NCBI GenBank assembly: GCA_040878035.1 | Contig: JBBDMX010000099.1 | Location: forward strand, 1,367 to 65,366 | Direction of reading: 5' to 3' | DNA length: 64,000 bases | DNA from: Phycisphaeraceae bacterium | GTDB lineage: Bacteria; Planctomycetota; Phycisphaerae; Phycisphaerales; Phycisphaeraceae | Shown here: piece by piece, positions 1-45,971 of the stretch | Layout: every line of letters begins with the position of its first letter | Numbering within the stretch: the first letter of the stretch is position 1 | The notes under the pieces: generated by a model | What the model was told of the DNA's origin: nothing | The model's database searches: none | What the model saw: the letters and a program-made list of their open reading frames with translations, nothing else | Made by a program: the position numbers and the translations under genes

Positions 1-743
1 GCATTCCTCGGCAGCGGGCGCCTCGGCGATGATCACGCCACCGGGGTCGGCGATGAAGGAGCTGCCCCAAAACTCCAGATCGTCCTCGACGCCGATGCGG
101 TTGATGGCGGCGACGAACACGCCGTTGGCAATGGCGTGGGCGCGTTGAATGGTCTGCCAGGCCTCCTTCTGTTGCCGGCGGTCGGCGGGCTTTTCGAGGT
201 GATACCAGCCGATGGCCGTCGGGTAGAAAAGGATCTGTGCCCCCGCCAGGGCGGTGAGCCGCGCGGCCTCGGGGTACCACTGGTCCCAGCACACGAGCAT
301 GCCGGTGGTCGCCTGGCGCATCGACTGCGTGGTGAATCCCAGATCGCCGGGCGTGAAGTAATACTTCTCGTAGAAGCGCGGATCGTCGGGGATGTGCATC
401 TTGCGGTACTTGCCGACGATCTTGCCCGCCGGGTTGATCATAATGCTGGTGTTGTGATACAGGCCCGGGGCTCGTTGCTCAAAGAGCGAGGCGGTGAGTT
501 CGACCTTGTGCTTCCTGGCCGCGGCACAGAGTTTCTGGGAGGTGGGACCGGGGATCGGCTCGGCCAGGGCGAAGCGCGATGGGTCCTGGACCTGGCAAAA
601 ATAGGTGTTGGCGAAAAGCTCCTGGGTGGCGATGATCTGGGCGCCTTGGCGGGCGGCGTCGGCGATGAGGCGCAGCGTCGTGGCGACATTCTTGCGCTTG
701 TCCGGCCCGCAGGCGTGTTGGAGCAGGCCGAGGCGGACCATCG
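1..743 (-). CDS. Carbon-nitrogen hydrolase, N-carbamoylputrescine amidase-like; C-terminus runs off the window start
   Basis: Reverse translation from ATG at 743..741 gives MVRLGLLQHACGPDKRKNVATTLRLIADAARQGAQIIATQELFANTYFCQ...IMINPAGKIVGKYRKMHIPDDP...MLVCWDQWYPEAAR (nitrilase-superfamily E-K-C context). It is absent from the ORF track because there is no in-window stop. The listed + strand ORF 136..804 is its antisense. Confidence 0.75.
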
Positions 744-5031: not shown

Positions 5032-5175
5032 CGGGAGAGCCTGGGGGTCAGTGTCCAACAGCAAAAAACCCGGGAACGGCGTCGATCCACAGCGGGCGGC
5101 CTGGCGATGAACAAAGTCATGACAAGCCCGACACTGACCACAAGGCCCCTGGCAAACGGGTCGCCGAACCCAACA

Positions 5176-5255
5176 GGCCGCGGTGGGATTCGAACCCACG
5201 AAGCTTTCGCAACGGATTTGCAATCCGCCCCATTAGTCCACTCTGGCACGCGGCC
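5176..5255 (-). tRNA. tRNA-Cys (anticodon GCA), 80 nt, with a 12-nt variable arm (4-bp stem) and no encoded CCA
   Basis: Reverse complement GGCCGCGTGCCAGAGTGGACTAATGGGGCGGATTGCAAATCCGTTGCGAAAGCTTCGTGGGTTCGAATCCCACCGCGGCC. It has a 7-bp acceptor stem, a GTGGG-TTCGAAT-CCCAC T-arm, and an anticodon stem-loop GCGGA-TTGCAAA-TCCGT matching E. coli tRNA-Cys. CGAA-AGC-TTCG forms an extra arm. Confidence 0.6.
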
Positions 5256-5732: not shown

Positions 5733-6044
5733 CCTGAGTTCGGGATAAGCCATGAGTTGCTGGAGAAGCGCCGGGCCGAGAACCAGGTGTCTTGCAGGCC
5801 CAAAGGGCTGTGATCCCTCAGCCCGGCCCAACGGGCCGGGAACCTCGGCCACCCGGTCTGGCAGGCCCCAACGGGGCGGTATAGGGATGCTCGATCATGC
5901 CAGCGATCAGGCGATATCGCGGCCCTTCAGGCCGCAGAACACGCCACACCGTCGACCCCCCAGCCCGTTGGGCTGGGCTGAGGAATACCGGCCCTTCGGG
6001 CCTCAAAGAAGCTTCACGACGCGCGGGCTTATCCCGAACTCAGG
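5733..6044. repeat. ~312-bp element bounded by a perfect 19-bp terminal inverted repeat (cctgagttcgggataagcc / ggcttatcccgaactcagg); MITE-like or structured RNA
   Basis: IR arms at 5733-5751 and 6026-6044. The interior is packed with short hairpins (ggcccttcaggcc, ggcccttcgggcc, cagcccgttgggctg). It lies ~480 bp from the tRNA in a lower-GC stretch without a convincing CDS. Confidence 0.45.
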
Positions 6045-33504: not shown

Positions 33505-34521
33505 TCAGCCCTTGACCGCGCCGAGTTGAATGCCTTTGACCAGGTACTTCTGGAGGACGATGAAGACCAGGACCATGGGGATGACGGACATGGTGACGGC
33601 GGCCATGAGGAGGTTGGTTTCCTGGCCGGCGGTGGAGTCGAAGTACATCAGGCCGATGGGCAGGGTGTACTTGTGCTCGCTGCGGAGCATGACCAGGGGC
33701 CAGAAGAAGCTGTTGTAGTTGCCCATGTAGGTGAAGATGGCCAGGGTGATCAGGCCGGGGCGGGAGAGGGGGAGGATGATGTCCCAGTAGAGTCGCCACT
33801 TGCTGGCGCCGTCGATCTCGGCGGCCTCGTCGAGACTGGAAGGAATGGTGAGCATGAACTGGCGCAGCAGGAACGTACCAAAGGCGGAGAACGCCCCGGG
33901 CAGGATCAGGCCGACCATCGAGTCCACCAGGCCCAGTTCGATCATGATCTGGTAGTTGGGGATCATCATGACCAGACCCGGTAGCATCATGGTGCAGAGG
34001 TAAAGGACAAAGACCTTGTCGCGGCCGGGCCACTGGAGGCGGGCGAAGGAGAAAGCCGCCAGCGAACTGGTGAAGACTTGAAGAAACGTGACCCAGGCGG
34101 CCACGAAGAGGCTGTTCCAATAGTAGCGTGCAAAGGGGATCGCGCTAAAGACATCCTGGTAATTGCGTGGCACGTTGAAGAGCTCAAAGCCAAAGATGCG
34201 CAGCGGCGCCCATTCGACGCTCGCGGGCAACCACGTGTCCAGGCCGACCTCCTGAAGCTGCTTGAGGCTGGTGAGGACCATCCAGGTGAAGGGCAGCACC
34301 ATGGCAAAGCTCATGACCGCCAGGACCATGTGCAATGCGGAGGTGCCCAGGAAGCGTTTGGCGGCGATGCTGGGTTTGACCGGCAGGTCGGGCAGCGGGC
34401 GGGGCTTGGGGTCGGACGGGCGCAGGGCGGCCTGGGCGTCGATGGCGGCGGCGGGGAAGGTGGACGCCGGCGTGGTGGGCTCGGCGGTGCCGGGGTTCGA
34501 GTTGGCCAGGGGATCGCTCAT
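33505..34521 (-). CDS. Carbohydrate ABC transporter permease (MalG-like)
   Basis: EAA loop DEAAEIDGASKWRLYWDIILPLSRP. Start at Met 34521 within ORF 33505..35010; ATGA overlap with the upstream permease. Confidence 0.8.
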   Translation of the reverse strand: MSDPLANSNPGTAEPTTPASTFPAAAIDAQAALRPSDPKPRPLPDLPVKPSIAAKRFLGTSALHMVLAVMSFAMVLPFTWMVLTSLKQLQEVGLDTWLPASVEWAPLRIFGFELFNVPRNYQDVFSAIPFARYYWNSLFVAAWVTFLQVFTSSLAAFSFARLQWPGRDKVFVLYLCTMMLPGLVMMIPNYQIMIELGLVDSMVGLILPGAFSAFGTFLLRQFMLTIPSSLDEAAEIDGASKWRLYWDIILPLSRPGLITLAIFTYMGNYNSFFWPLVMLRSEHKYTLPIGLMYFDSTAGQETNLLMAAVTMSVIPMVLVFIVLQKYLVKGIQLGAVKG

Positions 34522-36011
34522 TCGTTGACGTATTTGTTGCCGAATTTCCAGTTGAACATCGTGACGCTGAAGACCAGGAGGAACAGGGCCCAGGCGGTGG
34601 CGGAAGCGAAGCTGAGCCGGCCGGTGTCGAACCCCTCGGTATAGATGAAGTAGGCCAGGGTGGTGGTGGAGCCGGCGGGGCCGCCCTTGGTCATGACCCG
34701 CGCCATTTCGAAGCCGCCCTGGAGTCCGCCGATAGTGCTCATCACCGCGATGAAGAAGGTGGTGGGCGCCAGTTGAGGCCAGGTGACGTGCCAGAATTTC
34801 TGGAATCGGCTGGCGCCGTCGATGTTGGCGGCCTCGTAGAGCTCCTCGGGGACGTTGGTCAGGGCCGCCAGGTAGAGGAGCATGTTGTTGGAGCCGATAG
34901 CGCCCCAGAATCCCATGATCATGATGGCGGGCTTGGCCCAGTTGTAGTCCGCCAGCCAGGTGGGCGAACCGAGTCCGCCGGGTCGTGCCGCCAGATCGGG
35001 CAGGTTCCATGCCACCGCCGCCAGGCCCAGCAGGACGAACTGGAAGACCATGACAAAGAGCGCCAGCATCAGGGACGTGCCGGTGCCGGCGCTAGGCCGG
35101 CTGGGGAAGTCACGGCCGGCGCCGGCGACGCGGACTCCCTGCCAGAGGATGACCGCCAGGACACCGGCGGTAAGCCAGAGGGCCTGTCCGCGCGTGGTGC
35201 TCCACACCCACGCCATGACCGTGGGCAGGAGCAGCAGGATGAGGGGCAGGATCAGGGCGGCGCTGCCCGCATCGCCATCGCTCCACATCTGCCGCAGCTT
35301 GGACAGCGACCAGGCCAGCAGCAGGACGATGAGGGCAAAGCCAAGCCACAGCCCCAGGTGCAAGGCGCTGGGCGGCATGGCATTGACGGCGCTGGTGGCG
35401 GCGTCCATGACGGGGCGTACGCCGGCGTTGATGGGCCCGGTTTCCGGGTTGTAGAGCTTCTTCCAGAGGATGTACGTGGCGACGCCGGCGGTGAAGTGGG
35501 GCGCGTAAAAGAGGGTGCGGTAGGCGGTGACGCCGCCGGAGAGTCCCAGGACGACGACCACGCCCGCCAGGCCGACCATGAGGATGGCCATGCCCGTGCC
35601 GCCCATGCCCACGACGGTGAGCATGGCGACGCTGACGATGAGTCCGAAGGTGGCGCAGACCCACAGGTAGACGCGCCTCCCGCCGCCGCGCGTGTCCTTA
35701 CTGAGCAGGATGGCGGCGCCCAGGGACGCGGCGATGCCAAAGGGAATGCCCATCATCAGGAAGAGCGTGTTGCCGAAGTAGCGGAGGAAGTCGCCCTCGC
35801 GGATGAGGCGGATGAAATTGCCCAGGCCGACGAATTCGAGCTTGGCGTCGGGCTTCCACATGTTGTGCAGGCGCAGGTCCCAGTTGGTGAACGCCAGCAT
35901 GATGGCAAAAAGCACGGGAAAGACGACGAACACCAGCATGCCGCAGATATTGGGCGTCAGGAAGGCCAGGCCCAGAATGAGATTGCGGGCTTGCTTGCGG
36001 CGGGAAATCAT
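34518..36011 (-). CDS. Carbohydrate ABC transporter permease (MalF-like) with a large inserted loop
   Basis: EAA loop EELYEAANIDGASRFQKFWHVTWPQLAP; ATGA overlaps on both sides. Confidence 0.8.
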   Translation of the reverse strand: MISRRKQARNLILGLAFLTPNICGMLVFVVFPVLFAIMLAFTNWDLRLHNMWKPDAKLEFVGLGNFIRLIREGDFLRYFGNTLFLMMGIPFGIAASLGAAILLSKDTRGGGRRVYLWVCATFGLIVSVAMLTVVGMGGTGMAILMVGLAGVVVVLGLSGGVTAYRTLFYAPHFTAGVATYILWKKLYNPETGPINAGVRPVMDAATSAVNAMPPSALHLGLWLGFALIVLLLAWSLSKLRQMWSDGDAGSAALILPLILLLLPTVMAWVWSTTRGQALWLTAGVLAVILWQGVRVAGAGRDFPSRPSAGTGTSLMLALFVMVFQFVLLGLAAVAWNLPDLAARPGGLGSPTWLADYNWAKPAIMIMGFWGAIGSNNMLLYLAALTNVPEELYEAANIDGASRFQKFWHVTWPQLAPTTFFIAVMSTIGGLQGGFEMARVMTKGGPAGSTTTLAYFIYTEGFDTGRLSFASATAWALFLLVFSVTMFNWKFGNKYVNE

Positions 36012-37537
36012 GGGGCGTTCTCGTCCGTCTCTGGCGCCGCCTGATTGGTGCGGCGATAGTACGCGCGATAGAAAGTGCTGGTGACCAGTTCCAGCGGGAT
36101 CGCTTTGCCTTGGGCTTTGTACTGATCGATCAGCTTCTGCTGCTGCACAAGCTGGTCGTAGCGGGCCCTGAGCTTGGGCTGTTCTTGGAGCGAGCGAGCA
36201 ATCTCCGCGTTGACGCGCTGGGCCACTTCCGCCGCAGCTTCCTTGGCGGAGCGCATGTCATTCATAAACAACTCGTGGACCCTGTTGACTTCGCGATTGG
36301 CGATGGTGTCGAGCACGAACGGGCTGTAGTCGCCGCCGATGGCGATGTCCTGGGCCGCGTTGAAGAACATTTCGTGGCAGCCCCATTCGTTGGGGTGGTC
36401 CGGCGGACGGTTAAACAACTCGGTCTGGGCGTATTGCGGAATGGGTGGCAGAGCGTCGGCGTCACGGACGATCTGCATGTTGTAATCTTCGCTGGCGAGA
36501 AAGGCCTGGAACAGCCGCGCCAGTTCGGGGTTGGGGCTGCCGATGTACATGCCCGCGGCGCGCGTGGCGATGGTGGTGCTGGGGAACCCGCCGTGCGGCG
36601 GCTCGGAAACGCTCAGCGCCAGGGGGCCGCCCTGGGGGTCCTTGAACTTGCGAAGCTGGATCAGGGCATAGCGCCCGCTGTAGAACATGGCGAAGTTGCC
36701 GCTGTTGAACAACTGGAGTGTCGGCCCGCCGTAGCCCTGCTGGGTGTCAAATCCCTGCCGATCCGCGGCCGTTGGCAGCAGGTGATCGACATAAGTCCAC
36801 TTGTAGACGCGCTCGAGCACCGCAACGAACCGCGGATCGTCCAGTGTGCAGCGCGTCCCGGTTTCGTTGAACTTGCCCAGGCCCAGACTGCGATACATCA
36901 GTTCCAGCACGACGCCATCGGCGAAGAAAACGGTGCGCCGCTGCCCCGGTGGGTTGGCGGCCTCGACCAGTTGCTTGCCGATCGCCTCGAACTGGTCAAA
37001 CGTCCACCGCTTGGGCGGCACGGGCACGCCGTATTTCTCGAACGTCCCCTTGTGGATCCAGTACATCGTCACCGCGACGTTGCAGGGGAACATGTACTGC
37101 CGGCCGTCCAGGGTAATCTCCGGCTCGATCGCGGCGTAGGTGTAGGAGGGGTCGAACTTGAGCTGCCGGCCCCAGTCCGTAACGTCGCGCAAAAGGCCGA
37201 TCGATTGGAAGTAGCGCATGCCCGTGCCGCTACCGATGTCCAACAGGTCGCCCGCCACGCCGCTGACGCCCTGGATCACCTGCTTGGACACTTCGCGGTT
37301 GGCGGTATCCAGGCGCAGGCGCACGGCCGGCTCAGGCTTGCCCTCGGCGCCCGGCACCGTGTAGCCGTTCTTCACCAGCCACTGGTGGAACAATTCCACC
37401 TGCATGTCCCGGGCCGGATTGCGGTCGGTCACCCAATAAATCACCGGCACCTCGCTCTGCTGGTCGGGATACGACCACCAGGTTCCAAAGGCGGCGGCAG
37501 CGAGCACCACGGCAATAGCGGCAAAAAGAAGCTTCAT
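36008..37537 (-). CDS. ABC transporter extracellular solute-binding protein (family 1)
   Basis: Signal peptide MKLLFAAIAVVLAAAAFG and an SBP-1 fold pattern. Start at Met 37537 within ORF 36008..38368. No ATPase gene adjacent. Confidence 0.8.
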   Translation of the reverse strand: MKLLFAAIAVVLAAAAFGTWWSYPDQQSEVPVIYWVTDRNPARDMQVELFHQWLVKNGYTVPGAEGKPEPAVRLRLDTANREVSKQVIQGVSGVAGDLLDIGSGTGMRYFQSIGLLRDVTDWGRQLKFDPSYTYAAIEPEITLDGRQYMFPCNVAVTMYWIHKGTFEKYGVPVPPKRWTFDQFEAIGKQLVEAANPPGQRRTVFFADGVVLELMYRSLGLGKFNETGTRCTLDDPRFVAVLERVYKWTYVDHLLPTAADRQGFDTQQGYGGPTLQLFNSGNFAMFYSGRYALIQLRKFKDPQGGPLALSVSEPPHGGFPSTTIATRAAGMYIGSPNPELARLFQAFLASEDYNMQIVRDADALPPIPQYAQTELFNRPPDHPNEWGCHEMFFNAAQDIAIGGDYSPFVLDTIANREVNRVHELFMNDMRSAKEAAAEVAQRVNAEIARSLQEQPKLRARYDQLVQQQKLIDQYKAQGKAIPLELVTSTFYRAYYRRTNQAAPETDENAP

Positions 37538-37732
37538 GCAATCGCGCGATCTTACGACAAATCGCTCCATACTGCCATTGCGCAAGTGAGCCCTGGAGCC
37601 AGGGGACCCGCCGGAGGTCTCCTGGCTTTTATCCCGTAACGGTTGTGGACCCCGGCATGCGGCGGTACCATGATTCCACTCGGTACGCGACCATGCCGAG
37701 CGCCCGGGGAACCGGGCCTTCGGGGACATGTG

Positions 37733-38398
37733 ATGCAGGAACTGCTTGATGCCATCGCCTCTCCGGTAAACCTGGCTCTCACCGTGCTGCTGGGCTTGGC
37801 GGTCCTCTACTGGCTGCTGGTCATCTTCGGGGCCTTGACGATCGATGCCCTGGACTTTGACATGGATGGCCCGGGCGATCTGCCCGACGGCGGCGACATC
37901 GATCTGCCGGCGCACGGCACCGACGACCTGGCGCACGCCGCCATGAGCCTCTCCTGGCTTCGCTTCTTCAACGTCGGCACCGTCCCGCTGATGTTCCTCC
38001 TGTCTATCTTCCTGCTCATGCTCTGGCTCGCCGGCGTCATCCTCCACCCTGTGATCGGTGCCTGGGGCGTCCTGTTCCAGATTCTGCTGCTGGTGCCCAT
38101 GGCTCTCGCCGCGGCTCTGATCACCAAGGTGCTGACGATGCCGCTGGCCACGATCTTCCGCCGCATGCGCGAACAGGAGGAAGCCGAGCGCCGGGTCGTC
38201 ATGGTCGGCCAGCGCGCCCGCGTGGTTTCCACCAGGCTCACCGATCGCTACGGGCAAGTCGAGGTGGAGACCAACGGCTCGCCCTTGCGGCTCAACGCCC
38301 GCGTCACCGAGGCGGGCCAGGAACTCAAACGTGGCGACGAGGTGATCCTCGTCGCCGAGGACGAACAAGGCAAGTTCTTCATTGTCCGGGGCCTATAA
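37733..38398 (+). CDS. NfeD-like (YqiJ-type) membrane protein with a C-terminal OB-fold
   Basis: TM helices, then GQRARVVSTRLTDRYGQVEVETNGSPLRLNARVTEAGQELKRGDEVILVAEDEQGKFFIV. Confidence 0.65.
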   Translation: MQELLDAIASPVNLALTVLLGLAVLYWLLVIFGALTIDALDFDMDGPGDLPDGGDIDLPAHGTDDLAHAAMSLSWLRFFNVGTVPLMFLLSIFLLMLWLAGVILHPVIGAWGVLFQILLLVPMALAAALITKVLTMPLATIFRRMREQEEAERRVVMVGQRARVVSTRLTDRYGQVEVETNGSPLRLNARVTEAGQELKRGDEVILVAEDEQGKFFIVRGL

Positions 38399-38416: not shown

Positions 38417-40477
38417 TTGACGCAAGCATTGACCGTATTGGTCGCAGCCGCCTTGGCGGTCTTCATCCTGGGCCTGCTGATCACCATCGTCAAGTGTTAC
38501 CGCAAGGTCGAGCCGGGCACCGCCATGGTCCGGCGCGGCTACGGCGGACCGCGCGTGTCCTTCAACGGCATGCTCGTGTTCCCCATCTTCCACCGTGCCG
38601 ACGTGATGGACGTCTCGGTCAAGCGCGTGGAGATTTACCGCCACGGCTCGGAGGGCCTGATCTGCAAGGACAACGTCCGCGCCGACATCAAGGTCGCCTT
38701 CTTCATGCGCGTCAACAACGTCGAGAAGGACGTGCTCCAGGTCGCCGACTCGCTGGGTGTCCGCCGCGCCAGCGACCAGGCCGAACTGGTGGAGCTGTTT
38801 GACGCCAAGTTCTCCGAAGCTCTCAAGACCGTGGGCAAGAAGTTCGACTTCACTGAGCTTTACACCGAACGCGACCGCTTCAAGGACGAGATTCTGGCGC
38901 ACATCGGCACCGACTTGAACGGCTACGTGCTCGACGATGCCGCCGTCGATTACCTCGAGCAGACCGACCTGGCGCAGCTTGATCCCAACAACATTCTCGA
39001 TGCCGAGGGCATTAAGAAGATCGCCGACCTGACGGCCCGCGAGGCGATCCGCGCCAACGAGATCAACCGCGAGAAGGAAAAGACGATCAAGAAGCAGGAC
39101 GTCGAGGCCCGCGAGACGATCCTGGAGCTGGAGCGTCAGCAGGCCGACGCCGAGTCCAAGCAGCAGCGTGAGATCGCCGTGGTCCGCGCCCGCGAGCAGG
39201 CCGAGGCCGACAAGGTGCGTGAGGAGGAGCGGCTCAAGGCCCAGCGCGCGCGCATTACGACCGAGGAGGAGCTGGGCATCGCCGAGGAGAACAAGCAGCG
39301 GCAGGTGCTGGTGGCGCTTCGCTCCAAGGAGCGTACCGACGGCATCGAGCAGGAGCGCGTGACACGCGAGCGCGACCTGGAGGCGACCGACCGCGAGCGC
39401 GTCGTCGAGCTGGCGCGCATCGACAAGGAAAAGGCGCTGGAAGTCGAGCGCAAGAAGATTCAGGACGTGATCCGCGAGCGCGTGGTGGTCGAGCGTGCGG
39501 TGGTCGAGGAGCAGCAGCGCATCCACGACACCGAGGAGCTGATGACCGCCGAGCGCGCCAAGCAGGTGAAGGTGATTGGCGCCACCGCGCTGGCGGAAGA
39601 GAGCAAGATCAAAGAGGTCAAGATGGCCGAGGCTTCGCGGGAGGCCTCCAAGTTCCAGGCGGACGAGATTCTCATCGAGGCTGAGGCCAACCGTCAGTCG
39701 GCCGAGAAGCAGGCGCAGGGCAAGATGAAGCTGGCGGAGGCGACCAGAGCCGAGGCGGCGGCGGGCGGGTTGGCGGAGGCCGAAGTGCTCGACGCCAAGG
39801 CCGGGGCGATCCGCAACTACGGCACGGCGGAAGCCGACGTCGTGGCCGCCAAGGGGCTGGCCGAAGCCAAGGCACTGCAGCAGAAGTATGAGGCCGAGGC
39901 CACCGGCGTCGCTGCCAAGGCCGACGCCATGAAGAAACTCGACGGCGTCGGACGCGACCACGAGGAGTTCAAACTCCGCCTCAACAAGGACCGCGACATC
40001 GAGATCGCCGCCATCAACATCCAGCGTGACGTCGCCGCCGAGCAGGCCAAGGTCCTGGGCGAGGCGCTCAAGCAGGCCAATATCGACATCGTCGGAGGGG
40101 ACAGCGCCTTCTTCGACCGCATCGTCAACTCCATCACCGCCGGCAAGCAGGTCGATCGTTTCGTGGGCAACTCCGATACCGCCCGCTTGGTGCGCGACAC
40201 TTTCTTCAGCGGCAACGGCGAGGGCTTCGGCCAGCGCCTGCGCGAATTCAGCGAGCAGTTCGGCGTCAGCGCCGAGGACCTCAAGAACCTGACGGTCTCG
40301 GCCCTGCTGGCGAAACTGCTGGCGCAGAGTGCTGACGGCACGCTCACCGACGAGCTGCGCCGCATGATCGGCTACGCCCAGAGCCGCGGTCTGGCAGATC
40401 GGCCGGTGCACGATATCGCCGCGGTCACCACCACGACCACCGTGGCCTCAGCCGCTAAGCCCAAGAGCAGGAACTAG
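38417..40477 (+). CDS. Flotillin-like SPFH/band-7 protein (YqiK/FloT type), 686 aa, TTG start
   Basis: N-terminal TM anchor, SPFH head, long E/A/R-rich coiled-coil region. AGGAG sits 8 nt upstream of TTG 38417. Confidence 0.8.
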   Translation: MTQALTVLVAAALAVFILGLLITIVKCYRKVEPGTAMVRRGYGGPRVSFNGMLVFPIFHRADVMDVSVKRVEIYRHGSEGLICKDNVRADIKVAFFMRVNNVEKDVLQVADSLGVRRASDQAELVELFDAKFSEALKTVGKKFDFTELYTERDRFKDEILAHIGTDLNGYVLDDAAVDYLEQTDLAQLDPNNILDAEGIKKIADLTAREAIRANEINREKEKTIKKQDVEARETILELERQQADAESKQQREIAVVRAREQAEADKVREEERLKAQRARITTEEELGIAEENKQRQVLVALRSKERTDGIEQERVTRERDLEATDRERVVELARIDKEKALEVERKKIQDVIRERVVVERAVVEEQQRIHDTEELMTAERAKQVKVIGATALAEESKIKEVKMAEASREASKFQADEILIEAEANRQSAEKQAQGKMKLAEATRAEAAAGGLAEAEVLDAKAGAIRNYGTAEADVVAAKGLAEAKALQQKYEAEATGVAAKADAMKKLDGVGRDHEEFKLRLNKDRDIEIAAINIQRDVAAEQAKVLGEALKQANIDIVGGDSAFFDRIVNSITAGKQVDRFVGNSDTARLVRDTFFSGNGEGFGQRLREFSEQFGVSAEDLKNLTVSALLAKLLAQSADGTLTDELRRMIGYAQSRGLADRPVHDIAAVTTTTTVASAAKPKSRN

Positions 40478-40637: not shown

Positions 40638-43600
40638 ATGGCTGAAACCGACTCCAATACAACCGCCCCCCAGAGCGCCGCGCCGCCGTCGGCGCCGCTG
40701 GACATCGATCAGGGCGCCTATCAGGTCCTGCGCGACCGCCTGCTCGCCTCGGGGCGCGAGCTGCGCGAGCGCGTGAACAAGCTCAACGCCCAACGCATCG
40801 ACGTGTTCGGCGGCATCCCCACCCAACTGCTCACCACCGAGCAGATCACCACCAGCCACAACTGCGTCCCGCGCGACATGGCGGCCTTCGGCGACCGCTT
40901 TGTCTTTGGCTACAACGTGCGCTTCGGACTCAAGCAGGAAATCGACCTGCCCGATGTCTTTGCCTGCGCCCGCTTCGATGGCCAGCGCTTCCACGAGGAG
41001 CCTATCACCTTCATCGCCGACGTCGTCTTCCGCAAGGAGTTCCAGGACCTCTACCGCTTCTACAAGCACGCCCTTTTCACCAAGTTCTTCAGTCATGGGC
41101 CGCACCTGTACATGAAGTTCCGCGTTGGGCGGAACATGGACGACTTTAAGGCATTCAAGTGGGCCATCAGCCCCGACAAACTCACGTACATCGACAACCG
41201 GTCTGACCACGAGGTCCGCTATCCACAACAGCACTCCTTCGACTGGAATCGCGTCACCCGCGACATGCTCCGGCCGGGCAAGAACCCGCACTACGCCATT
41301 GATGACTGCCTGTTCGTCGAGACCACCGGCGGGGACCTGACCATCAAGATCGAGGACAACACCGAGCACGGCCGGGGCATCTACAGCGAGCCGGTGGACG
41401 ACCCCAGCCAGAGCCCCGACGACGCCGAGATCAGCTACGCCCTGCACGGGAACCTCGTATTGCTGCGCATCCGTCCGTTCGGCGAAGACGGCCACCGCCA
41501 CTTCATCTTCAACCGCAAGCTGCGCGAGGTCATTCGCCAGGACTTCATCGCCGACGCCTGCCAGGCGCTGCCCGACGACCACGGCCTGATCTTCGCCGGC
41601 GGGTACTACCTGGCCTCCGGCAGGCACCATGTCTTCCCCAACATGCCCGCGCGCCTGACCTTCGAGAAACGCATCGCCAGCCCCAACGGCGAAGACTACC
41701 TCTACGTCATGTACGACCGCGGCGAAGGCTTGTACGTGCTGATGCCCTACAACGTCATCGAGCAGCGCGTCGATACGCCCATCGTCTGCTCAGGCTACAG
41801 CATTTTCGACAACGGCCGGCTCGTATTCTTCAAGGCGCACGAAGAGCCGCAGCGGCACCACGCGCTCCAGATCTGGCAGACCCCCTTTGTCGCCGCGGAC
41901 TTCCCCGTCGAACGCAAAAGCGATTCACGCCTCTACCAGATCGGCAACCGCGACATCGTCCGCGGCATGGCCGAGTGCACTCGGCTGCTCCAGTTGATCG
42001 AGCGCGAGCAGCTCTACGCCGAGCTGTACCTCGACATCGTCAAGGCGGCGTCGGCGATGCTCGACGGGTATCACTGGCTCAATGAGCCGGCATCCTTCCA
42101 ACTGGCGCAGGTGATCACGCAAATCCGCGACACCGGCCAAGCCGCCGTCAGCGAGTACGAGAAAGTCGTCCGCCTCCGCAAGGCGTCCCAGGACGCCCTG
42201 GCGCAAGAGCAGGAGCGCACGCGCAACCTGATCAGCGAGAACGCCGCGCGGCTTTACAACGGCGTCGATGCGTTCGTCAAGTCGCTGGCGCTCCTGCGCG
42301 AGGCGCGCGGTCGAATCATCGGCCTCAAGGATGTCCGCTACATCGATGCCTCGCAGGTGGAGGAACTGGAAGGCCAGATCACTGAGCAGACGGGCGAACT
42401 GAGCCGCCGGGCGGTGGAGTTCCTGCTCAAGCCCGACTCGCTGGCGCCCTATGCGTCACGCGGCGAGCAGTTCGCGCAGATGATCGGCGCGGTGGAACGT
42501 GTGGTCGAAGCCAAGGCCCTGTCGGAGAAAATCGAGACCGCCGCCGGCGAGTTGGAGATGCTCATCGAGATCGTGAGCAACCTGCGCATCGAGGACGCGA
42601 CGCAGCGGACGACGATCGTGGACAGCATTTCGGCGGTGTTCGCGACTCTCAACGCCTCGCGGCAGGCGTTGCGCAACCGCATCGCCGAACTGGGCCGCGC
42701 CGAGGGCGCCGCCGAGTTCAACAGCCAGCTCCGCCTGCTGGCTCAGAGCGTGTCCAATTACCTGGACCTGTGCGACACGCCGGAGAAGGTGGACAACTAC
42801 CTGACCAAGATGATGGTGCAGTTGGAGGAACTGGAAGGTCGCTTTGCCGAGTTTGACGATTTGGTGGTGCAACTGGCCCAGACGCGCAACGAAGTGGTCA
42901 CGGCGTTCGAGCAGCGCAAGTTACAGATCACCGAGCGGCGCAACCGCCGGGCCATCGCGCTGGCGCAGGCGGCCGACCGCATCCTGGCGGGCATCAAGTC
43001 GCGCGTCGACGCCATGGACTCGATCCAGCAGATCCACGGCTACTTCGCCTCGGACCTGATGATCGACAAGGTGCGCGACATTCTCGAGGAACTGGCGTCG
43101 ATTCAGGACACCGTCCGCGCCGACGACATCCAGTCCCGGCTCAAGAGCATCCGCGAAGACGCTGTTCGCCAGCTCAAGGACCGCCAGGATCTCCAGGCCG
43201 AGGGGCCCAACACTATTCGCTTCGGCCGGCACGTATTCTCCGTCAACACCCAACCGATCGAGCTGACGCTGGTCCGCCGTGATGCGGGCATGCAGCTTCA
43301 CATCAACGGCACGCGTTTTTTCGATCCCGTAGAGGACGCCGGGCTGCTTGACACGCGCGAGGCGTGGGACCAGGAACTGGTGAGCGAGCGCGACGAGGTC
43401 TATCGCGCTGAATACCTGGCGTACAAGATGCTGCCCTGGGTGACGAATCTGCCCGAGAATGAGCGGCGCGAGCTGCTGGATGAATCGAGCCTCGCCCTGC
43501 TGCAACGTGTGCAGCAGTTCATGGCCACGCGTTACGCCGAGGGCTACACCAAGGGCGTGCACGACGCCGACGCCACCGTCCTCCTGCGGCAGTTGATCGA

Positions 43601-45971
43601 CCTGTCGGCAACCATCGGCCTGCTCCGCTACTCGCCGGCGGCACGCACGCTGGGCGTCCTGTTCTGGCAGATGAACGAGGACACCGACCTGCGGCGCAAG
43701 CTCGCGGGCCAGTTGCTCGCCGTGCGCGAGGTGTTCACTTCCTTCCCCACCCAAGGCAAGCACCCGCGCAGCATTGAAGAGCTGGAGGCCGCGGTGCGTG
43801 CCTTTGCCGCAGAGCGCCCGCCGCTGGATCCCGACCTGGCGCACCAGGCCGCCGAGTACCTGTTCATGGAGGGCACCATCCGTGCCGAGGGCTTTGCCAG
43901 CAGTCCCGAGGCCGACGATCTGATGCGTGGCTTCAACGACCACCTGCGCAATACCGCCGCGGCACGCCGATTCAAGGATTCCCTCGACAAGGTCGGCGAT
44001 GACCCCTGGCGGCGCTACCTGCTGCATCGCGATTGGATGCAGGCGTTTTTCATGGCGTCGGATCTCGATCGCGGGCGCCTGGCGTCTTATCTGGATGAAG
44101 CGGCGCTGCGCTTGTTCGAGGGCCCCAACAGTCACGCCCGGCTCGTGCCCGTGAGCACGCGACGGCGCATCGAAGGCTTGCGCGGCGGGCACAAACGCAT
44201 CGACAACGGCGCCATGGACCTGGAATACACGGAGTTCATGACCCGGCTCCAGCGCTTCGAGCGCCTCGCCGTGCCCCGCTTTGAGCGCTTCACCCAGGCC
44301 AAGCGCAAGGTGGTCGAAGCGGCGCGGCACGACATCCGCGTCGAGGAGTTCAAGCCGCGCGTGCTCACCTCCTTTGTGCGCAACCGGCTCATCGACCGCG
44401 TCTATCTGCCGCTGATCGGCGACAACCTGGCCAAGCAGATCGGCGTCAGCGGCAACACCACCCGCACCGACCGCATGGGCCTGCTGCTGGTCATCAGCCC
44501 GCCGGGCTACGGCAAGACCACGCTCATGGAGTACATTGCCAGCCGGCTGGGCATCGTCTTTGTCAAGATCAACGGCCCGGCGCTGGGCCACGGCGTCACG
44601 TCGCTGGATCCCGAGGAAGCGCCCAACGCCGGCGCTCGCGAGGAAATCGAGCGGCTCAATCTCGCCTTCGAGATGGGCGACAACGTGATGATCTACGTGG
44701 ACGACATCCAGCACACCAACAGCGAGTTTCTCCAGAAGTTCATCTCGCTCTGTGACGCACAACGGCGTGTCGAGGGCGTGTTCCGCGGACGCACGCGCAC
44801 CCACGACCTGCGCGGCCGAAAGGTCGCCGTGGTCATGGCGGGCAACCCCTACACCGAGAGCGGCGAGAAATTCCGCATCCCCGACATGCTCGCCAATCGC
44901 GCCGACACCTATAACCTGGGCGACATCATCGGCGAGCACGGTGATTCATTCCGCAGCAGTTACCTCGAAAACGCATTGACCTCCAACCCCGCGATTAACG
45001 ACCTGGCGGCACGACCCGCCAACGACGTGCACGCCGTCATCCAGATCGCCGCCACCGGCTCACGCGAAGGTGTGGACTTCGAAAGCTCCTTCACCAGCGA
45101 CCAGGTCGACGAGATGGTCAACGTGATGAAGAAGCTCATCCAGGTGCGCGATGTGGTGCTGCGCGTCAATCAGCAGTACATCCGCTCGGCGGCGATGGAG
45201 GACCGCTACCGCACCGAGCCGGCGTTCCTGCTCCAGGGCTCGTACCGCAACATGAACCGCATCGCCGAACGGGTGCTGCCGGTGATGAACGACGCGGAGC
45301 TGCGCACGCTGATCCTCTCGGCGTACGAGCAGGATGCGCAGACGCTGACCACCGGCGCCGAGGCGAACCTGCTCAAGTTCAAGGAGATGATGGGCTGGCT
45401 TGACGAGACGGAGGCCAAGCGCTGGGACGACATCTGCCGGACGTTCCGCCGGACCAACGAAGTGGCGATGATGGGCGGCGACCAGGCGGCGGCGGTGGTG
45501 TCGCAGTTGAGCCGATTCAACGAGGGGCTGGGCGACATCGGTAAGGCGATCGCCGTGGCGGCGGCTTCCGGGGGCCGGCACAACGGCGACGCCAAGGCGG
45601 TGCTGGCCATCGACGAACAAACCGCCGGCGTGATCGCGGCGCTGGCATCGCGCATGGACGCCATGGCGCAGGCCATGGCCGACAGCGCCGCCGCAGCCGC
45701 CCGCCAGGAAGATGTCCCGCCCGCGCCGCCGTCGCCCGAGCAGATCACCGGCAAGACCAGCCCGTATGAAATCAAGGTCATCAACCGCGTGCCCGAAGCG
45801 TTCCTGGTCATCATCCGTCAGCAGTTCGAGCTGATGAAAAGCTGGCTCGAACCGCTGGGCCGCATCGCCGCCGGACAAGAGGACCGTATCCGGCAGGTAG
45901 TCGATTCACTGGAAACACTGACGGCCAAGTACGAACGTGTGATCGAACGATTGGAAAAAGGGCGCGAGTGA
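40638..45971 (+). CDS. Giant uncharacterized protein, 1777 aa: N-terminal globular domain, ~900-aa helical/coiled-coil region, P-loop NTPase module, helical C-terminus
   Basis: Walker A VISPPGYGKTTLMEY (~aa 1285) and Walker B NVMIYVDDIQ (~aa 1355). Clean single ORF with host-like codon usage. Confidence 0.8.
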   Translation: MAETDSNTTAPQSAAPPSAPLDIDQGAYQVLRDRLLASGRELRERVNKLNAQRIDVFGGIPTQLLTTEQITTSHNCVPRDMAAFGDRFVFGYNVRFGLKQEIDLPDVFACARFDGQRFHEEPITFIADVVFRKEFQDLYRFYKHALFTKFFSHGPHLYMKFRVGRNMDDFKAFKWAISPDKLTYIDNRSDHEVRYPQQHSFDWNRVTRDMLRPGKNPHYAIDDCLFVETTGGDLTIKIEDNTEHGRGIYSEPVDDPSQSPDDAEISYALHGNLVLLRIRPFGEDGHRHFIFNRKLREVIRQDFIADACQALPDDHGLIFAGGYYLASGRHHVFPNMPARLTFEKRIASPNGEDYLYVMYDRGEGLYVLMPYNVIEQRVDTPIVCSGYSIFDNGRLVFFKAHEEPQRHHALQIWQTPFVAADFPVERKSDSRLYQIGNRDIVRGMAECTRLLQLIEREQLYAELYLDIVKAASAMLDGYHWLNEPASFQLAQVITQIRDTGQAAVSEYEKVVRLRKASQDALAQEQERTRNLISENAARLYNGVDAFVKSLALLREARGRIIGLKDVRYIDASQVEELEGQITEQTGELSRRAVEFLLKPDSLAPYASRGEQFAQMIGAVERVVEAKALSEKIETAAGELEMLIEIVSNLRIEDATQRTTIVDSISAVFATLNASRQALRNRIAELGRAEGAAEFNSQLRLLAQSVSNYLDLCDTPEKVDNYLTKMMVQLEELEGRFAEFDDLVVQLAQTRNEVVTAFEQRKLQITERRNRRAIALAQAADRILAGIKSRVDAMDSIQQIHGYFASDLMIDKVRDILEELASIQDTVRADDIQSRLKSIREDAVRQLKDRQDLQAEGPNTIRFGRHVFSVNTQPIELTLVRRDAGMQLHINGTRFFDPVEDAGLLDTREAWDQELVSERDEVYRAEYLAYKMLPWVTNLPENERRELLDESSLALLQRVQQFMATRYAEGYTKGVHDADATVLLRQLIDLSATIGLLRYSPAARTLGVLFWQMNEDTDLRRKLAGQLLAVREVFTSFPTQGKHPRSIEELEAAVRAFAAERPPLDPDLAHQAAEYLFMEGTIRAEGFASSPEADDLMRGFNDHLRNTAAARRFKDSLDKVGDDPWRRYLLHRDWMQAFFMASDLDRGRLASYLDEAALRLFEGPNSHARLVPVSTRRRIEGLRGGHKRIDNGAMDLEYTEFMTRLQRFERLAVPRFERFTQAKRKVVEAARHDIRVEEFKPRVLTSFVRNRLIDRVYLPLIGDNLAKQIGVSGNTTRTDRMGLLLVISPPGYGKTTLMEYIASRLGIVFVKINGPALGHGVTSLDPEEAPNAGAREEIERLNLAFEMGDNVMIYVDDIQHTNSEFLQKFISLCDAQRRVEGVFRGRTRTHDLRGRKVAVVMAGNPYTESGEKFRIPDMLANRADTYNLGDIIGEHGDSFRSSYLENALTSNPAINDLAARPANDVHAVIQIAATGSREGVDFESSFTSDQVDEMVNVMKKLIQVRDVVLRVNQQYIRSAAMEDRYRTEPAFLLQGSYRNMNRIAERVLPVMNDAELRTLILSAYEQDAQTLTTGAEANLLKFKEMMGWLDETEAKRWDDICRTFRRTNEVAMMGGDQAAAVVSQLSRFNEGLGDIGKAIAVAAASGGRHNGDAKAVLAIDEQTAGVIAALASRMDAMAQAMADSAAAAARQEDVPPAPPSPEQITGKTSPYEIKVINRVPEAFLVIIRQQFELMKSWLEPLGRIAAGQEDRIRQVVDSLETLTAKYERVIERLEKGRE

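Follow-up and report, generated by a model that had tools for sequence, protein, structure and literature searches.

Flotillin operons in which a YqiJ/YuaF-like membrane protein gene precedes the flotillin gene are known from Escherichia coli (YqiJ-YqiK), Bacillus subtilis (YuaF-FloT), and Shewanella (SO1376-SO1377); all 3 end after the flotillin gene, which is followed by a terminator in Shewanella (PMC1468410). A longer operon was described computationally by Ravi et al. 2024 (mSystems, PMC11237479), whose survey of phage-shock-protein (PSP) systems gave the order CesT_Tir, YqiJ-YuaF, Band-7+coiled-coil+flotillin, and beta-propeller+coiled-coil+AAA-ATPase, noted abbreviated operons without PspA, listed the same gene order for Dokdonia donghaensis in a supplementary table, and proposed ATP-dependent sub-membrane remodelling. 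This was the only work on the ATPase that we found in the literature; queries for DUF3686/PF12458 and for flotillin + MoxR returned nothing, and neither a 2009 survey of SPFH proteins nor a 2022 PSP survey mentions it. Here, we analyzed a 64,000-nucleotide stretch (the window) of contig JBBDMX010000099.1 from the Phycisphaeraceae bacterium assembly GCA_040878035.1, in which a gene for such a giant ATPase lies downstream of a YqiJ-like and a flotillin-like gene. We identified it as a predicted soluble, MoxR-like AAA+ protein of the Pfam family DUF3686/DUF7902 that on balance probably remodels the flotillin scaffold.

The 3 genes follow one another on the same strand of the window in the order YqiJ-like, SPFH, and giant ATPase, the giant gene being last (Table 1). 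Domain order, partners, and their order are those of the operon of Ravi et al. 2024, from which nothing essential differs. The CesT/Tir-PspA dyad of the full form is missing, and because tblastn across all 64 kb detected neither a PspA nor a CesT homologue, the window holds the abbreviated YqiJ-flotillin-ATPase form. To that earlier study, which is comparative genomics without structure or experiment, our analysis adds the AAA+ clade, the fixed-length spectrin-like repeats, extra beta and alpha domains, a Walker B motif with 2 aspartates (DD), and a Planctomycetota-type tail. The YqiJ-like protein has transmembrane (TM) segments at residues 14-32, 86-104, and 112-142 by hydropathy, along with a soluble beta-rich C-terminal domain. 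The SPFH protein, longer at ~690 residues than the flotillins of the E. coli, B. subtilis, and Shewanella operons, comprises an N-terminal TM segment, the SPFH domain, a long charged coiled-coil region, and a flotillin-type C-terminal part; the NCBIfam FloT model matched it weakly (residues 421-493), and no sequence match was found in the PDB. Its one TM segment (residues 7-25) is followed by the basic motif KCYRK, and by the positive-inside rule, the body of the protein is predicted to be cytoplasmic. The giant ATPase has no hydrophobic segment (maximum Kyte-Doolittle hydropathy, 1.16) and is predicted to be soluble, without TM segments. Contact between the 2 proteins is thus topologically allowed.

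We compared gene neighbourhoods at 80 loci, with 1 genome per species; for the SPFH count, we kept those whose upstream flank exceeded 2.5 kb. An SPFH homologue (~50% identical) was located upstream on the same strand in 63 of these 66 loci. For the YqiJ-like gene, flanks were long enough at 61 loci, and at 52 of them it immediately preceded the SPFH gene. The pairwise identities among the SPFH proteins correlate with those among the giant proteins (Pearson 0.75). Annotation of the Pseudomonas fluorescens plasmid pQBR103 shows the same 3 genes, and a Streptomyces linear plasmid carries an uncharacterized hypothetical gene followed by the flotillin and ATPase genes. In 16 of the 80 loci, all Bacteroidota, CesT_Tir_1 and PspA_IM30 genes are found directly upstream with a divergent HTH/S24 repressor, reproducing the full form listed for Dokdonia donghaensis by Ravi et al. 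2024; these neighbours suggest a link between the operon and envelope stress. Bacteroidota loci also carry unrelated, variable small genes (DMP19-like, DUF3997, esterase) between the flotillin and giant ATPase genes. Stretches that show such preceding or inserted genes are L012 (1941-5085), L016 (6615-7698), L049 (7220-7900), and L056 (2478-3344). On pQBR103 (L081, 50-11184), the trio comes right after DUF2491, DUF350, DUF1190, and glutathionylspermidine-synthase-like genes, a polyamine-related module that Ravi et al. (PMC11237479) linked to PspA systems.

The giant gene is an uninterrupted open reading frame (ORF) of 1,777 codons with an ATG start. An identical 1,777-residue protein is recorded from a metagenome-assembled genome of Phycisphaeraceae (Planctomycetota), and the protein has more than 4,900 database matches; the 120 best are all full length (1,720-1,960 residues), at least 50% identical, and carry the same Pfam set. 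Because of this identical entry and the full-length orthologues, some of them from complete genomes, the ORF is no assembly artefact. An initial annotation of the gene, made from the letters alone, had named 2 findings that would speak against it, a P-loop not conserved in orthologues and an ORF interrupted in a better assembly; neither was encountered, with the ORF full length elsewhere and the P-loop conserved in all sequences of a cross-phylum alignment of 80 full-length homologues (Planctomycetota, Bacteroidota, Verrucomicrobiota, Desulfobacterota, Kiritimatiellota, Omnitrophota, Clostridia, Pseudomonas plasmid pQBR103, and Streptomyces). All strings quoted in that annotation were also recovered, within a few residues of where it had placed them (Table 1). 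It missed the Pfam family and the upstream flotillin/YqiJ operon partners. The DUF3686 profile (PF12458) matches residues 41-479 over its whole length (positions 1-448 of 448; E 6e-176, 585.8 bits against a cut-off of 25), DUF7902 (PF25472) matches residues 600-683 (E 1.4e-24, 86.5 bits), and both AAA and AAA_5 are above threshold within residues 1283-1407, AAA scoring 28 bits over residues 1283-1404. With DUF7902 and a C-terminal AAA domain in 1 polypeptide of ~1,600-1,900 residues, the protein classifies as an intact member of an existing family and not as an orphan. NCBIfam and PADLOC searches returned no real family for it, only weak P-loop matches.

Proteins of this family with the same domains and the same 1,600-1,900-residue length as nearly all members are named DNA repair ATPases, and a role of the giant protein in DNA repair is very improbable. 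The name is inherited only, from the Pfam description of DUF3686 ("ATPase involved in DNA repair") and the NCBI product name, and the weak RuvB matches that accord with it score 20 bits where the cut-offs are 282-299 and cover only ~50 residues round the P-loop. Pfam searches detected no DNA-binding, nuclease, or helicase domain, the conserved neighbours encode membrane proteins and not repair functions, and no supporting paper was found in the literature. We rejected the "increased mutation" phenotype of Shewanella SO1376/SO1377 as a source of the name, that operon having no giant gene. We thus regard "DNA repair" as a mislabel, and the lack of support for it is a new result of the present analysis; the label propagates through genome annotation and misdirects study of the family.

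Two AlphaFold2 (AF2) models were built from 77-sequence alignments, with a mean predicted local distance difference test (pLDDT) score of 85.8 for residues 1-860 and 84.1 for residues 845-1777. The aromatic-rich, beta-like N-domain described in the initial annotation was borne out, with phenylalanine, tryptophan, and tyrosine making up 13.7% of residues 58-430 against 5.2% of residues 431-853, and with ~27 strands predicted at pLDDT ~90. Foldseek matched this domain in the PDB to propeller proteins only (E 1e-6 to 1e-4), including CyRPA, thiocyanate dehydrogenase, tricorn, prolyl oligopeptidase, Elp1, IFT-A, ROD, and clathrin heavy chain. The ~900-residue helical rod that had been read into residues 430-1250 is mostly helical, as claimed, but is not modelled as a single rod: a 423-residue spectrin-like arm is predicted to be followed by separate globular domains, namely the small beta domain and the all-alpha domain, and then by beta hairpins (residues 1175-1196) and 1 long helix (residues 1197-1233). 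The arm contains helices of up to 58 residues, the fold search matched this helical middle of the protein to spectrin repeats, and its helices are modelled as spectrin-type three-helix bundles. Heptad periodicity, also claimed earlier, is local, with peaks near residues 520-570 and 690-760, and only moderate overall. The all-alpha domain, with short helices of 10-20 residues within 923-1161, had no Pfam or PDB match. The tail (residues 1621-1777) is predicted to be helical, in keeping with the initial annotation, but mostly at pLDDT below 60, and it is absent or unconserved outside close relatives.

Table 1. The operon in the window, predicted domains of the giant protein, and motifs located in its translation (residues refer to the giant protein; TM, transmembrane)
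Feature	Residues	Window position	Strand	Basis
YqiJ/YuaF-like 3-TM membrane protein, 221 residues (gene 1)		37733..38398	+	Pfam YqiJ_N, E 1.4e-8
Flotillin-like SPFH/Band-7 protein, 686 residues (gene 2)		38417..40477	+	Pfam Band_7, E 8.3e-9
Giant DUF3686-DUF7902-AAA+ protein (gene 3 of the operon)		40638..45971	+	ORF list and translation, Pfam, homologues
Disordered N-terminus	1-24		+	AF2 model
N-terminal single long helix	25-57	40710..40808	+	AF2, pLDDT ~90
Beta-propeller domain, core of DUF3686	58-430	40809..41927	+	AF2, Foldseek, Pfam
Spectrin-repeat-like helical arm	431-853	41928..43196	+	Contains DUF7902, 600-683 (42435-42686)
Small beta domain	854-905	43197..43352	+	AF2 strands at 859-897, pLDDT >90
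Globular all-alpha domain	906-1165	43353..44132	+	AF2 short helices, pLDDT >90; conservation
Linker: beta hairpins and 37-residue helix before the ATPase	1166-1280	44133..44477	+	AF2
AAA+ alpha/beta core	1281-1435	44478..44942	+	Modelled core 1283-1430
AAA+ lid and helical extension	1436-1620	44943..45497	+	Carries motif LQGSYR[ND]MN[RK]
Lineage-specific C-terminal tail	1621-1777	45498..45971	+	Ala/Gly/Pro-rich linker, then 2 helices
FVFGYNVRFG	88-97			Quoted string located
YVLMPYNVIEQRV	366-378			Quoted string located
FFKAHEEP	397-404			Quoted string located
LRLLAQSVSNYLDL	698-711			Quoted string located
LEELEGRFAEF	729-739			Quoted string located
Walker A, GYGKTT	1290-1295	44505..44522		Quoted string located
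Walker B, IYVDD	1352-1356	44691..44705		
IYVDDIQ	1352-1358	44691..44711		Quoted string located
Arginine-rich stretch FRGR...NLGD, with sensor-1 and Arg-finger candidates	1382-1429	44781..44924		Quoted string located

The late-placed P-loop NTPase of the initial annotation is real, with Walker residues identical in 80 of 80 sequences, and it belongs to the AAA+ superfamily and not to the ABC type. The module has a Walker A of the form GxxGxGK[ST], a Walker B of the form hhhhD[DE] less than 70 residues away (1290-1356), a sensor-1 polar residue after beta4 (candidate N1403), an Arg finger (candidate R1421), and an alpha-helical lid, in whose motif LQGSYR[ND]MN[RK] R1537 is the sensor-2 candidate. 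Residues identical in all 80 homologues comprise G1290-Y-G-K-T, D1355, D1356, H1359, R1376, N1403, P1404, E1407, D1416, R1421, D1423, and R1525, and R1537 is identical in the 78 sequences with a residue there, the other 2 being gapped. Across phyla, the AAA core has a mean identity of 78%, with 33% of positions invariant, as compared with 10% in the linker (residues 1166-1280). A functional ATPase is likely. In all 80 members, Walker B reads hhhhDD and is followed by an invariant Q-H; the catalytic glutamate of canonical AAA+ proteins thus appears to be replaced by aspartate family-wide, and because of this DD, ATP turnover could be slow or switch-like.

The clade was assigned from fold comparison because searches of the PDB by sequence, with either a single sequence or a 10-sequence profile of the ATPase module, reached only ~40-50 residues round the P-loop of p97/Cdc48 and RuvB. 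The closest folds to residues 1281-1620 were the MoxR proteins CbbQ and NorQ, followed by dynein and midasin. The NTPase is therefore modelled as 1 MoxR-like AAA+ module of the MoxR/dynein/midasin structural group, an assignment that is new in the present analysis. The MoxR clade is marked by helix-2 and pre-sensor-2 inserts; the model of the giant ATPase predicts a pre-sensor-1 beta-hairpin (residues 1377-1390) and an 18-residue loop after beta2 (residues 1313-1330). With MoxR proteins such as CbbQ, NorQ, and RavA, it shares the AAA_5 match and the motif order ...AGNP... (sensor 1) and NRAD (Arg), corresponding to ...NP... and ...NR.D in that family, whereas sequence similarity is restricted to the P-loop. 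Compared with MoxR proteins of ~270-500 residues in total, the giant ATPase has ~1,280 residues of N-terminal domains, the DD in Walker B, and no VWA/MIDAS partner gene. As no VWA gene is conserved upstream or downstream in the 80 loci and the protein has 1,777 residues against a compact ~300-500, it is not a canonical MoxR system.

The initial annotation had called the layout SMC/ClpB-like in spirit while noting that it matched neither. The second half of that statement holds and the first does not: there is 1 AAA+ module in a MoxR-style layout, with neither an ABC signature nor the 2 rings of Hsp100. That the protein is nonetheless an SMC-like or ClpB-like machine, with the rod folding back or spacing the NTPase, is extremely improbable. 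The long helical region between the N-domain and the NTPase would suit such a machine and stands as described, but its helices are modelled as spectrin-like bundles and not as an SMC arm. Moreover, the single module has no split ABC head, N-terminal Walker A, signature motif, or hinge, and no SMC, ABC, or hinge domain was matched in Pfam. As for ClpB/Hsp100, the protein lacks a second AAA+ ring, Pfam matched neither Clp_N nor an M-domain, and MoxR-type fold matches outrank Hsp100 for the ATPase module. The domain and fold results contradict this reading.

What we established directly is how the domains are arranged, how far the motifs are conserved, how the gene is linked to its operon, and how widely the family is spread among phyla. 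Full-length relatives were identified in at least 11 phyla, and a plasmid search added Deinococcus, Nonomuraea, Proteus, Vibrio, Photobacterium, and Halomonas. Across phyla, the giant ATPases are 36-50% identical over 1,600 residues with almost no indels. The arm measures 422-424 residues in 80 of 80 homologues (standard deviation 0.3), and helical spacers are not usually held to one length so strictly. Because this length is kept despite pairwise identities down to 36%, the arm looks functional and no passive spacer; its fixed length across the 80 homologues is a new observation of the present analysis. The all-alpha domain is otherwise the least conserved part (32% identity), and an invariant motif, Y970-x-K-G-[VI]-H-D-x-D978 (window 43545-43571), lies within it together with R1003; because the motif is invariant in a domain without Pfam or PDB match, it may be an unrecognized binding or catalytic site. 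The C-terminal tail shows 54% gaps and 10% identity across phyla; in Bacteroidota, Verrucomicrobiota, and Clostridia, the protein stops near residue 1640 and has no such tail. The Planctomycetota-type tail has a conserved helix pair after the Ala/Gly/Pro-rich linker, in which P1719, Q1729, F1730, W1736, and P1739 do not vary among the 30 full-length homologues compared; most of these are from Planctomycetota, and their identity to the query is 50-67%.

When 1.84 billion representatives were searched exhaustively with the N-domain, no more than 700 clusters (at 50% identity) were recovered, with the DUF3686-type domain always N-terminal in proteins of ~1,600-1,900 residues or fragments. The family thus appears compact, slowly diversifying, and single-architecture, and this very low diversification, together with near-indel-free identities of 36-50% between phyla, is unlike fast-evolving defence genes. 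We consider it improbable that the giant ATPase acts as effector or sensor in phage defence or another kind of conflict, even though defence systems often include large NTPases joined to repeat domains, megaplasmids (pQBR103 and plasmids of Streptomyces, Deinococcus, and Hymenobacter) carry copies, and variable genes, 1 of them DMP19-like, are inserted in some loci. The sole PADLOC-DB 2.0 hit was mad8, a weak match over the P-loop region (E 0.0034, 14.9 bits), and no model matched significantly. No homologue was found in phage genomes, Pfam detected no nuclease, protease, or other effector domain, and the conserved partners are membrane-scaffold and PSP genes.

Our favoured interpretation, held with moderate confidence, is that this soluble cytoplasmic AAA+ ATPase most likely remodels the flotillin/YqiJ sub-membrane scaffold in an ATP-driven manner. 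MoxR proteins form rings, and the ATPase modules would do likewise, with the arms projecting the propellers outwards. Propeller and arm would dock onto the cytoplasmic flotillin/YqiJ assembly, and possibly also onto PspA polymers where PspA is co-encoded, and ATP binding and hydrolysis by the ring would remodel, assemble, or disassemble the scaffold in membrane maintenance or envelope stress, in formal analogy to the action of Vps4 on ESCRT-III. The oligomeric state, that the protein touches flotillin physically, and which way the scaffold is remodelled are what we infer here. Vps4 with ESCRT-III (Snf7/PspA superfamily) and HflK/C with FtsH are functional analogies only, in which an AAA+ ring is coupled, genetically or physically, to a membrane-bound oligomeric scaffold (SPFH or PspA); the giant ATPase has no MIT or protease domain, and the HflKC-FtsH cage is periplasmic, whereas all soluble parts are predicted to be cytoplasmic here.

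Several points weigh against scaffold remodelling. No experiment on any family member was found in the literature. Operon linkage and co-variation would also fit simple co-inheritance, and 3 loci with ample flank (L018, L032, and L051) have no adjacent SPFH gene. MoxR-type ATPases are usually paired with a VWA/MIDAS partner, none of which is conserved in the 80 loci, and Walker B carries DD instead of the canonical DE in every member of the 80-sequence alignment. Many YqiJ-YqiK-type operons, such as Shewanella SO1376/SO1377 (PMC1468410), function without the giant ATPase, which is therefore no general requirement of flotillins.

Another explanation, unlikely in our judgement if a serious contender, is that the flotillin scaffold is a platform only, and that the AAA+ ring, once recruited to flotillin microdomains, serves different clients, for instance membrane proteins that are damaged or not assembled, or a membrane complex in maturation, in parallel with the HflK/C cage round FtsH or with MoxR chaperones maturing enzyme complexes. 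The closest structures are indeed those of the MoxR chaperones/activases CbbQ and NorQ, beta-propellers are generic protein-binding platforms, the variable small genes between the flotillin and ATPase genes of Bacteroidota could encode clients or adaptors, and SPFH cages are known to organize AAA+ proteases (HflKC-FtsH structure, cited in PMC13086221). However, the operon contains no conserved gene for a protease, a VWA protein, or an evident client, and genes so strictly paired and an arm of fixed length speak for a defined structural partner and not for diverse clients.

Remodelling of the scaffold could take a more specific form, which we put forward tentatively as a possibility: a new type of membrane-skeleton motor in which rigid spectrin-like arms on a MoxR-like ring carry propeller tips that grip the flotillin cage, the arm serving as a molecular ruler matched to the geometry of that cage. 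This would be the first ATP-driven machine for SPFH assembly or disassembly, and the giant ATPase would play for flotillin the role that Vps4 plays for ESCRT-III.

To our knowledge, bacterial flotillin (SPFH) scaffolds have no known dedicated energy-consuming partner. Because the family is very large, well conserved (36-50% over 1,600 residues), and almost always co-encoded with flotillin, it is a strong candidate for such a partner in flotillin-scaffold assembly, turnover, and coupling to envelope-stress responses. Its members are among the largest and best-conserved uncharacterized bacterial proteins, and several carriers are tractable, including Proteus mirabilis, Vibrio campbellii, Pseudomonas fluorescens pQBR103, Streptomyces, and Flavobacteriia. 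The gene in the window is an ordinary member of this family, its operon has already been described computationally, and the interest lies in the family and not in this instance.

The flanks of the trio in the window are unrelated to it: upstream, an ABC cluster for sugar transport is divergently oriented, and downstream, a gene for an APH-type kinase is convergent. Scans for promoters and terminators round the operon gave no result better than shuffles. The minus-strand ORFs of the ABC cluster (36008-38368, 34518-36011, and 33505-35010) look over-extended at their 5' ends: SBP_bac_1 covers only residues 367-659 of the 786-residue ORF, which overlaps the conserved plus-strand YqiJ-like gene, and BPD_transp_1 covers only the last ~180 residues of 2 permease ORFs of ~500 residues, which overlap each other. 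Elsewhere in the window, we identified a tRNA-Cys(GCA) gene at 5175-5255 on the minus strand and, ~700 nucleotides away, a match to the Rfam small RNA (sRNA) motif Acido-Lenti-1 at 5959-6003 on the plus strand (42.1 bits against a gathering score of 37).

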